Shown: positions 1 through 24,612 of the stretch, piece by piece
How positions within the stretch are numbered: position 1 is the stretch's first letter
Layout: every line of letters begins with the position of its first letter
Notes under the pieces: model-generated
Told to the model about the DNA's origin: nothing
Databases searched by the model: none
What the model saw: only the letters and a program-made list of their open reading frames with translations
Position numbers and translations under genes: made by a program
Origin: Bacteroidota bacterium
Lineage (GTDB): Bacteria; Bacteroidota; Bacteroidia; 2-12-FULL-35-15
Direction: 5' to 3'
Length of the DNA stretch: 64,000 nt
Assembly: GCA_040389865.1 (NCBI GenBank)
Contig: JAZJZM010000007.1
Coordinates: 195,271 to 259,270, forward strand

Positions 1-3000
1 GGTCAGGGTAATATGATCACTATTACCAGCGTAGTGCCATCTCAATTGACAATTTGCGGAACAGGCAAACTATTTACAATTACAATATACAACCCATCAC
101 CTTTTACAATTACCAACGACACCTTAAAGGTGTCGATGCCCAATGGTATAAACTATCTGGCAGGATCGGTAAGCGGAGCAACCTATGTAACCCAATTATT
201 TCCAAACGTAGAGGTGTTTGCACTGCCAACTATTCTTCCTTTACAAAGCATCACCATTACTTATATTGCGGAAGCAAAATGTAATGTTCTGGCTTATATT
301 TCCGGGGGGGGGATAACAAAAAACAATATCCGTGTGGATTATAAAGCTAACAATACCATCCATTACAATACACATATTACCAACTCTTATCTTGTAAAAC
401 AACCCTACCTTGTTATCACTACAATTACAAATCAATCTTATACAGGAAATATAGGTGATGTATTTTCACGCTGCATCACCATTGTAAATGCAGGTTCGGG
501 GGAACTCACCGAATTTACCTTAACAGATATTCATGGTTCGGGGATACAGGTGAATGCCGTTGACAAAGGAACATTGACAAATGTTACTACTGCTTTGGCC
601 AAAGTAATTGTGAATGGTACCAACTTCACAACTATTGGTGATGGCGACAATTTGTTTGAAAATGGGGAAAGTATGGTTATTTGTGAAACAGTAACTATTC
701 TTAATTGTATTTCTGCATCATCGGCCTTTAAAGCATTCTGGGGCTGTAGTGTAAATGCCTGCCAATCGTCAGTTTCGAGTGCCAATATTGTTTTTCCGAA
801 TTACATCCCTAATTTGGTGATGACTCCAACTGCATCTATGAATACCTGCATTGGTGCCGGGAATGCAAGCCCTCAGCAATTGAGAATAGTTAATACAGGT
901 TTAGGAAATGCGTTGAACGTAGCCTTAGAGATTTTTCAGGCAACAGGTGGGGGTTATAACAATACGGTTGGGTCCAATATTGATGCAGGAAGCTTCACCA
1001 TGCAGGTTGGGAGCGGAGGCACACCTGCTTTTGTGCCCACAACTATATTTCCTACTTCCGCCTTAAACTGTATGACAGCCCCTATTGGGAAGGTCACGCT
1101 TACTATTCCAACCATTAATGCGGGAGATACTGTATTTCTGAAATGGAACTCATACAGCTGTTGTTACAATGCTTGTGCAAACACTGGCAGAAGCTATATT
1201 AACGGATGGAGGTACAGGGGCACTTATAAAAATATCTGTCAAAACACCTATGTGATCTATGAAAATTGGGGAAGGGTATATTCCAATATTTATGCTGCTT
1301 TAGCAAACAACGGTTCGCCAGCTACTTTAAATGATGGGCAAACCGGTACATTTAATTTTTTATTTTCAAACTACGGCAATTCGTATCCTGCAGGGCCCGG
1401 GGCGCACTGGAAATTTGAATTTACGGTGCCTAATTGTTTCAGTTATTCAGGTAACCTTCACATTCTGCGCTCAAATGGAATAAATACCTGGCTTCCCACT
1501 TCAGTAAATAGTTCGGGGAATGTGATCACCGCTATTTTTAATGGAACCGCTCCCTGGAACCTTGCCCAGGGGGAATTAAAACTGGACCTGACTTTGGATT
1601 GTTCCAGCTGCACCGGAACCGACAGTTTGGGCGCCATCAGCGTTAAATCGTTTTTTGTCCCGAATGGCACCTGTGCCTGTGAAATTGGGGTTTCCTGCCA
1701 AAGTACTGCCGTTAGTATCAACTGCCCAAACCCTTGCCCCGAAGGTTTGATCTTTACTTATTTTGATTTAAAACGTACCAATTATGGCTATCCCGACAAT
1801 GAACCGAGTGGAGGGAATGGAATACCTGATGGACCCGGTCCTGTGGATATGACAAAAGTTAAAGCCGCCAGGGCCATGTTTGGCGATACCATTAAGGCAT
1901 CGTTTAACGGATGGATAAAAACCAGTATCGCTTATCCATCATGGAAATATTGTTATGCTATTTCTTCCATCGCAAATGGAAATCGCCTGGCATTTGTTGA
2001 TGCCAAATTAAAAATATACCGTGCCGGGGCCTTGTTAGCCACCTGTGCTAATTTTACTCCGGTGGTAACCGACTCCTCCACCAAAAGAACGTTTAAATAT
2101 AATTTAAGTGATTCCTTGCTTGGAAGCTGCTTTACAGGCCCGTATTTGAATAATGATTCATTGGTATTTGAACCAAGATATAGAGTTATTTCCAATATCC
2201 GTAACTCGGCTCCATTAAATTGTTACTCTTCCAATGAGTTTTACCTCAGTGATCTCGCAGCTTTCCCAATACCACCTACTCCTGTGGCCCACAAATTTCA
2301 ATGCGGGAACTACAATGGCAGTTGTTCCATTATCGGTTATTGGTTCAGGAACTGGGAATCAGAAAGTTATGATACCAAGTCCTGCAATAATGTGGTGCTA
2401 AGGCAAGATTATCATTTGAGTATTGGTCCGGGTAATAATAACGATGCCGGAGGGAACCTGTTCCCTTACGAATATCGAAACTGGGCACATCTTGAAAACC
2501 TAACTGCCATAATTCCTCCCGGATATACCTTGATATCAGCCCGGTTTAGAGAGATAAGAACTGCCGGAACATTAATTACCAATGCCAGCAGCTGGATAAA
2601 TTTAACACCGGCTGATCCAAATTCAGATACGCTTAGCTTTCCTGTTGAGCAGTATTATATAAATTTTGGAGGTTTAGCTATTATTACCCCAAGTGATGAT
2701 GGTTTTTATGGAACATTGGAAATAACACTTCAGCCCGGTTGTGAAGTAACTCCTTCCATTTATCAGGGGGTACAGAATGATGTTGATTTTGCCGTTATTC
2801 CCCAGCTAACCGGGCCCGGAACCGATACCACCTTTTTATCCGAAATTGATGATCATGTGGTGTATGATCCACCCGACCTGTTTATTCAGTCAACGCTTCC
2901 ATCTGTTTTTGCTCTCAATACCACTACAACCTGGGATATCAGCATCTCCAATACCTCCAATGTATCAGATGCTTTAAATACATGGATAAGCGGCCCGGTA

Positions 3001-24612: not shown

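Follow-up and report, generated by a model that had tools for sequence, protein, structure and literature searches.

What a single bacterium might do with three giant and closely similar surface proteins is the question raised by the first 24.6 kb of a 64,000-nucleotide stretch of Bacteroidota DNA (assembly GCA_040389865.1, contig JAZJZM010000007.1, positions 195,271 to 259,270; this whole stretch is called the window below), in which three genes of this kind, here named A, B, and C, follow one another on the same strand. An earlier note on this DNA had seen them as a diversifying locus of adhesins of the "SprB/RemA type" that depend on type IX secretion (the system called T9SS). We consider it probable that A, B, and C are T9SS-exported fibrillar surface adhesins that are held at the cell surface by a shuttle protein encoded elsewhere in the genome, with each gene forming its own transcription unit and the three proteins offering non-redundant binding specificities or reaches. 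The domain content, the type of C-terminal sorting domain (CTD), the folds, the paralogy, orthology, and selection of the genes, and the lack of a linked shuttle gene were all computed here, and it is from these that we infer the secretion route, surface retention, and adhesion.

The open reading frame (ORF) listing places three plus-strand ORFs at 13..7125, 7479..14414 (2311 aa), and 16618..24612 (2664 aa), which bears out the three same-strand giant genes of the earlier note. These do span 24.6 kb as it had stated, though not without interruption, given that the 2.2-kb gap between B and C (14415-16617) holds three minus-strand ORFs. The note had further described all three products as secreted proteins of 2300-2660 aa, which holds for B and C (and for the ortholog of A in a related genome) with their signal peptides but not for gene A as seen here (1..7125, plus strand), a putative type B T9SS giant surface protein whose 5' end is cut by the window edge. 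Read from the first base of the window, frame 1 gives GQGNMITI, to which residues 18-25 align in the ortholog as well as in B and C, so that the ATG at 13 is internal and ca. 17 codons including the signal peptide lie upstream of the window, for a full length of ca. 2391 aa. Judged by eye, Sec signal peptides open gene B (MKKLLVITFLFLSYQCRSQG), gene C (MKRLLLLIFLFVNYYSSGQG), and the A ortholog (MKKLLFLILFSLHYYCSGQG). The three proteins are collinear paralogs over their full length with 58-62% identity in global alignments, far above chance (ca. 52% in BLAST local alignments). Each is built from four parts, namely the Sec signal peptide, a family-specific and disulfide-rich N-terminal module (N-module) of ca. 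1500 aa composed solely of adhesin-type beta-sandwiches, a stalk in which PKD domains are combined with immunoglobulin-like (Ig) ones, and a type B CTD, with 61-70 cysteines per protein of which 42-43 fall within the N-module.

That A, B, and C are type B substrates of the T9SS is supported by the combination of signal peptide, PKD domains, and CTD. The Pfam family CHU_C (PF13585) is matched at 41.7, 42.5, and 51.7 bits in A, B, and C, respectively (cut-off 27), and the dedicated type B sorting domain model TIGR04131 at 36.9 bits in A and 45.5 bits in C (cut-off 35). The CTD of B (14139..14411) reaches 34.7 bits with the latter model and is accepted as type B like those of A (6850..7116; CHU_C at residues 2280-2354 and TIGR04131 at residues 2280-2368 of the ORF 13..7125) and C (24346..24609), because its last 100 aa are 79% identical to those of A; across the three pairs, the CTDs share 79, 50, and 55% identity. 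No match to the type A CTD (Por_Secre_tail; TIGR04183 / PF18962) was found in A, B, or C, and the type B assignment made in the earlier note thus stands.

To dissect the stalk, profiles of the repeats in C were run over all three proteins, as self-BLAST for internal repeats was uninformative. It comprises three Ig_7-like domains, two copies of a 95-aa Ig repeat, and four PKD domains in A (4519..6810), two Ig_7-like domains, two copies of the same repeat, and four PKD domains in B (12045..14099), and one Ig_7-like domain, four repeat copies, and seven PKD domains in C (21166..24306), whose stalk is the longest of the three. Because the composition differs in this way (9, 8, and 12 domains in total), the length differences among the paralogs reside in the stalk. 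The earlier note had announced PKD and SprB-like repeats in this part of the proteins, and only the former could be confirmed: PKD domains (Pfam PF18911 / PF00801 and repeat profiles) exceed their cut-off with four to seven copies per protein and PKD_4 scores of 126.7 (A), 138.8 (B), and 279.1 (C) bits, while relaxed Pfam scans of the Ig regions (E up to 10) found no SprB repeat (PF13573) in A or C and only a sub-threshold hit in B (12.9 bits versus a cut-off of 28). PF13573 is present in some homologs of the family with 45-53% identity.

The N-module accounts for ca. 60% of each protein, and many of its cysteines are invariant across the family. It covers 1..4500 in A (42 cysteines, no Pfam match, collinear with those of B and C), 7539..12038 in B (43 cysteines), and 16675..21162 in C (43 cysteines). 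No Pfam family was matched above threshold, with residues 24-131 of B coming closest at 21.4 bits for DUF11/CLIPPER (PF01345; cut-off 24.6), and a profile of the module searched against PDB sequences likewise returned no match beyond a chance-level cohesin (E 0.46). AlphaFold2 models of the N-module of C, made from alignments of 54-57 sequences, are all-beta and locally confident, with a predicted local distance difference test (pLDDT) score of 83.5 for residues 20-1150 and 88.3 for residues 1100-1620, and they depict a chain of beta-sandwich domains from which the fold in A was taken over. When the whole model was compared to solved structures with Foldseek, it matched only other long beta-sandwich chains at low template modeling score (TM-score). 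The individual modeled domains resemble CnaA-type domains of adhesins and pilins (the C-terminal domains of BspA and SpaP, Sgo0707, ACE, RrgB, ClfA/B, and SdrD) and also macroglobulin domains, cohesins, and CLIPPER, so that a CnaA-like beta-sandwich fold of the CLIPPER / DUF11 type is predicted for the module. CLIPPER/DUF11 domains have been described from the stalks of fibrillar adhesins (bioRxiv 10.1101/2025.04.25.650565). The models thereby support the view that A, B, and C have the folds of surface adhesins of the fibrillar kind, in line with the surface-adhesin nature that the earlier note had proposed. Compared to fibrillar adhesins whose stalks have CLIPPER (DUF11)/CnaA-like domains and to the domains of Gram-positive pilins and microbial surface components recognizing adhesive matrix molecules (MSCRAMMs), the proteins described here differ in that PF01345 is reached only below threshold and that they have many conserved cysteines instead.

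The N-module is widespread among Bacteroidota. The 68 proteins that a word-indexed search with the module of C retrieved belong without exception to uncultured Bacteroidota, most of them having 2100-2550 aa. An exhaustive search with a hidden Markov model profile of the module reached 929 representative clusters, with E<=1e-30 in 473 cases. In nearly all of them, the match begins at residue 20-40, right behind the signal peptide, and it mostly spans the module from one end to the other; the proteins range from 1.7 to 6.5 thousand aa in length. Among the genome loci, close relatives come only from metagenome-assembled genomes (MAGs), while distant ones (23-26% identity) occur in Saprospiraceae, Chitinophagales, and cultured Flavobacteriaceae (Maribacter, Croceitalea, and Cellulophaga). 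Two distant members of ca. 25% identity, in Maribacter vaceletii (locus L042, 9545-19194) and in a Saprospiraceae MAG (L025, 33-9989), are followed downstream by a PorP_SprF gene and an OmpA/PD40 (PorE-like) gene, a layout typical of operons for type B substrates. The M. vaceletii protein also has three strong DUF11/CLIPPER domains ahead of its CTD. Another member with 44% identity (P0060; L051, 9265-17587) lies directly downstream of the gene for the gliding lipoprotein GldD, and a different CHU_C protein 6 kb upstream of it has a PorP_SprF gene of its own.

No gene of this kind accompanies A, B, and C. PorP_SprF (PF11751) was found neither among the scanned ORFs of the window nor beside the close relatives, and with no adjoining PorP/SprF gene the three proteins are classed as "orphan" type B substrates. 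The type B proteins that have been studied, SprB and PG1035, are held on the surface by a PorP-like partner (PMC9143113). In Flavobacterium johnsoniae, three orphans with more than 44% CTD identity share the unlinked shuttle Fjoh_1677 and are directed to the gliding machinery (PMC12618676). These proteins (Fjoh_1123 and Fjoh_1720 together with Fjoh_4934) resemble A, B, and C in their CTDs and gene context, as they likewise have a type B CTD (TIGR04131/CHU_C), no downstream porP/sprF-like gene, and several related CTDs per genome (>44% identity there versus 50-79% here; PMC12618676), though A, B, and C are tandem paralogs, unlike the F. johnsoniae orphans. Given the identity of their CTDs, a shared unlinked shuttle is plausible for A, B, and C by analogy, and they probably have one in common; loading onto a gliding track is possible. 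Each protein would then be exported via Sec into the periplasm, where it would fold and form its disulfide bonds before the type B CTD is recognized for passage through the SprA/Sov translocon. It would next be transferred to a PorP/SprF-like shuttle in the outer membrane and be retained on the surface with the CTD end at the membrane and the N-module pointing outward as the binding end.

Several observations weigh against our interpretation of A, B, and C as shuttle-held adhesins. The 64-kb window contains no T9SS core gene and no PorP/SprF gene, so that the proposed secretion route draws on the CTD and on contigs of relatives (L049 and L051, with GldD, PorP_SprF, and Por_Secre_tail proteins), and TIGR04131 falls 0.3 bit short of its curated cut-off in B. 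None of the domains found is a ligand-binding one with known specificity, which makes "adhesin" a matter of fold class and architecture, and the arrangement of the modeled domains relative to one another is uncertain (predicted TM-score 0.57-0.67, with low TM-scores to solved chains). As to separate transcription of the genes, the exact Bacteroidota promoter consensus (TTTG-N17-21-TAnnTTTG) was not found upstream of B or C and occurs in the window as often as expected by chance.

The evolutionary record of the array bears directly on its presumed diversification. The closest related contig (L001/L046; MAG GCA_040384245.1) carries the three genes in unchanged order, encoding proteins of 2389, 2311, and 2663 aa, with LutB-like, SDR, and MoaA genes downstream as in the window and small unrelated genes upstream of the A ortholog. 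Each protein is far closer to its own ortholog (91.7% identity for A [2389 aa, L046], 91.6% for B [P0014, 2311 aa], and 92.4% for C [2663 aa, L046]) than to the other two paralogs (58-62%). Between orthologs, Nei-Gojobori estimates of synonymous divergence (dS) are 0.35-0.43 with a ratio of non-synonymous to synonymous divergence (dN/dS) of 0.10-0.12, lowest in the N-module (0.05-0.10) and highest in the stalk (0.12-0.21), while dS between paralogs is saturated at ca. 1.65. Saturated paralog divergence, one-to-one orthologs at ca. 92% identity, and dN/dS of ca. 0.1 together indicate that the triplication is old and that all three copies are under purifying selection. That they differ in sequence and stalk length and have all been retained suggests three non-redundant binding specificities or reaches rather than a rapidly varying locus, and the "diversifying locus" of the earlier note does not survive this comparison, not least because the N-module is the most constrained part instead of the most variable. 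Over longer time scales, the family is nonetheless dynamic, since related genomes have three, two, or one copy: the A and C orthologs are adjacent without B in L002, and L005 has a single A ortholog in another gene context. In the low-coverage LakeFargette MAG (L012), the C ortholog shifts frame at 6620-6664 and its ORF ends at 6706, which may be a sequencing or assembly error or mark a pseudogene. The N-module of C looks like a mosaic, with residues 1-560 being 65-68% identical to A versus 54-56% to B and residues 561-840 being 67% identical to B versus 58% to A, which suggests ancient recombination between paralogs or a chimeric origin. The mosaic region corresponds to window positions 16675-20067 (residues 20-1150 of C). 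Gene-conversion tracts were considered as well and rejected, given that no DNA match between copies is longer than 88 nt (84% identity).

A contingency locus that diversifies rapidly or is phase-variable, with copies that swap segments or alternate in expression, could draw on the copy-number differences between related MAGs (A-B-C, A-C, or a lone A elsewhere), on the mosaic N-module of C, and on the foreign DNA inserted between B and C (see below). Set against this are dN/dS of ca. 0.1 in every segment, orthologs kept one to one at 92% identity, the 88 nt at 84% identity as best repeat between copies, a sole inverted repeat that is a terminator hairpin with a shorter form also in the relative, and the lack of any observed recombinase, reverse transcriptase, or homopolymer of variable length, with the A8 tract before the ATG having equal length in paralogs and orthologs. 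We regard this explanation as already largely refuted and extremely improbable. A different fate is conceivable if the type B CTD served for export only, so that the proteins were released and acted in the medium or matrix, e.g., in aggregation or biofilm formation. The lack of a linked anchor gene and the recovery of fusions of sfGFP to type B CTDs in F. johnsoniae culture supernatant (PMC12618676) would fit such a scenario, but SprB and PG1035 remain attached at the surface to the PorP-like protein that each is paired with (PMC9143113) and a long stalk makes most sense on a tethered protein, so that we find release very unlikely.

The two remaining explanations agree with ours in placing the proteins at the surface and concern what they do there. 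As mobile gliding adhesins in the manner of SprB, A, B, and C would, once secreted, be loaded onto the gliding track to be driven along the cell, with each of them gripping a different surface. This would be compatible with the observation that moving substrates lack a PorE-like gene in their operon (PMC12618676), just as A, B, and C have neither a PorP nor a PorE neighbor, and with the 44%-identical relative encoded directly downstream of gldD. Nothing indicates, however, that the source organism, which is uncultured, glides, and distant family members reside in operons with PorP and PorE, an arrangement tied to static anchoring (PMC12618676). SprB of F. johnsoniae is likewise large, repetitive, all-beta, rich in Ig-like domains, and exported by the T9SS via a type B CTD, but A, B, and C lack SprB repeats at threshold, a downstream sprF gene, and any operon resembling sprCDBF, have a distinct N-module of 1500 aa, and are with 2300-2660 aa only about one-third as long as SprB (6497 aa; bioRxiv 10.1101/2024.01.29.577165). 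We therefore regard a mobile role as rather unlikely. The proteins could alternatively form static fibrils or multimeric appendages like the "grappling hook" protein GhpA or PG1035, anchored to the wall through PorP/PorE-like proteins encoded elsewhere and catching particles or prey. Substrates in PorE-containing operons look static (PMC12618676), and the distant Maribacter and Saprospiraceae members with PorP_SprF and PorE-like genes downstream fit this picture. GhpA of Aureispira (PDB 9flp) shares the layout of a long N-terminal region (ca. 1400 aa), an Ig-like stem, and a T9SS CTD (bioRxiv 10.1101/2024.01.29.577165); the Ig repeats of B match those of its stem (E 8e-16), and the many conserved cysteines of A, B, and C recall its disulfide-stiffened stem. 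Yet GhpA has 5898 aa, forms a heptamer with 52 stem repeats, and is followed by the PorP/PorE homologs GhpB/C (bioRxiv 10.1101/2024.01.29.577165), whereas the stalks of A, B, and C have 8-12 domains, ghpB/C-like genes are missing downstream of them as well as in close relatives, and no similarity to GhpA was detected beyond the Ig repeats, the N-module profile matching nothing in the PDB. A static appendage of this kind is in our view unlikely.

Unlinked-shuttle adhesins of a less narrowly defined kind thus remain our preferred interpretation, and the label "SprB/RemA-type" is too specific for them. RemA of F. johnsoniae, also a T9SS-secreted surface adhesin candidate, has a lectin domain that is not present in A, B, and C. 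Its CTD is of type A (PMC12618676), which was not found here, so that the label mixes two sorting classes with A, B, and C on the type B side; the missing SprB repeats at threshold, the absence of an adjoining sprF-like gene, and the shorter length discussed above equally speak against it.

How the three genes are expressed can be approached from the sequences between them. Gene A is followed by a long terminator-like hairpin on the plus strand (7130..7298) with arms of 31 nt (7130-7160/7268-7298; terminator scan match at 7267-7291) and a loop of 107 nt that itself holds a second hairpin (7176-7194). In L046, the same arms are ca. 20 nt apart and followed by T's, which is why we read the element after A as a putative terminator hairpin with a loop insertion that is not invertible. 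An invertible promoter upstream of B, for which the 31-nt inverted repeat was a candidate, was rejected on the same grounds and because no recombinase is nearby; neither a recombinase among the window ORFs annotated with Pfam nor a repeat-flanked invertible promoter segment was found. After B, a short GC hairpin is followed by T's (14452-14465). Upstream of B, C, and their orthologs, ca. 150 nt are homologous and include an identical A-rich leader before the ATG; the candidate promoter-like block and leader, delimited by alignment of paralog and ortholog upstream regions, lie at 7391..7478 for B and at 16528..16617 for C (both on the plus strand), and the motif GATGCAACYAATTTTTR has no occurrence in the window other than those at 7391 and 16528. 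The 30 nt that directly precede the ATG of C were found twice in L001 and twice in L046, in the B and C upstream regions covered doubly by contig overlap. A sigma-70 scan gave chance-level results, and Rfam and tRNA scans detected only a tRNA-Met (51938-52016), with no match between the genes of the array. From the hairpins after A and B together with the homologous upstream blocks, we infer three separate transcription units under similar control, and the shared block of B and C argues for similar rather than alternative control of these genes.

The gap between B and C is foreign to the adhesin system. Related loci (L001, L002, L012, and L046) have only ca. 290 bp between B and C or A and C compared to the 2.2 kb in the window, and searches of these loci matched none of its three minus-strand ORFs, so that ca. 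2.0 kb at roughly 14420..16436 are a mobile insertion into the array. These ORFs encode a lipoprotein-like protein (14676..15254) with a LIITGC lipobox and no Pfam match, a HigA-like antitoxin (15436..15864; HTH_3), and a HigB toxin (15849..16142; HigB_toxin PF09907, E 1.7e-33). A direct repeat of 48 nt (14512-14559 / 15221-15268; 90% identical) flanks the lipoprotein-like ORF. Inside the insertion, a GC-richer non-coding stretch (16305-16421) is 77% identical to a segment between the MoaA and GT9 genes of L001 (21607-21734); it has no Rfam match and a fold z-score of only -2.2 and could represent a small element of a repetitive or mobile kind. Within gene C, an antisense ORF of 175 aa (20973-21500, minus strand) has an open counterpart in the ortholog (L001, 14359..14886) and is most likely a by-product of sense-frame conservation. 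Besides HigBA in the B-C gap, the array neighbors LutB-like, SDR, and MoaA genes. Further along the window, a signaling cluster (35776-44579 and 48812-51055) encodes a LytTR response regulator, two stand-alone receivers, three PAS histidine kinases (one of them hybrid), and a TPR-SpoIIE phosphatase; a TPR-SpoIIE gene is also found near a family member in L047.

In other respects, there is nothing unusual about this set of large adhesin-like paralogs, which reveals no new mechanism. The most useful new points are the widespread, unannotated N-module and the contrast between orphan and PorP/PorE-linked members within one family. Tentatively, the N-module, which matches no Pfam, NCBIfam, or PDB sequence, may define a large and so far undescribed family of fibrillar T9SS surface proteins in which the lineage studied here lost its linked PorP/PorE anchors and may have given up static anchoring in favor of a shared shuttle encoded elsewhere, and possibly of the gliding track, with the three tandem copies providing three specificities; this scenario is possible, if speculative. 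Type B substrates of the T9SS are much less understood than those of type A, and it is only recently, in a single model species, that the way in which orphans find a shuttle and their final state as static or moving proteins have been addressed. The three related orphan CTDs of this genome (50-79% identical), together with distant family members that are linked to PorP/PorE and close ones that are not, form a natural comparison set that could show which features of the CTD decide on the choice of shuttle and on final location, and a description of the N-module would improve the annotation of many Bacteroidota surface proteins.

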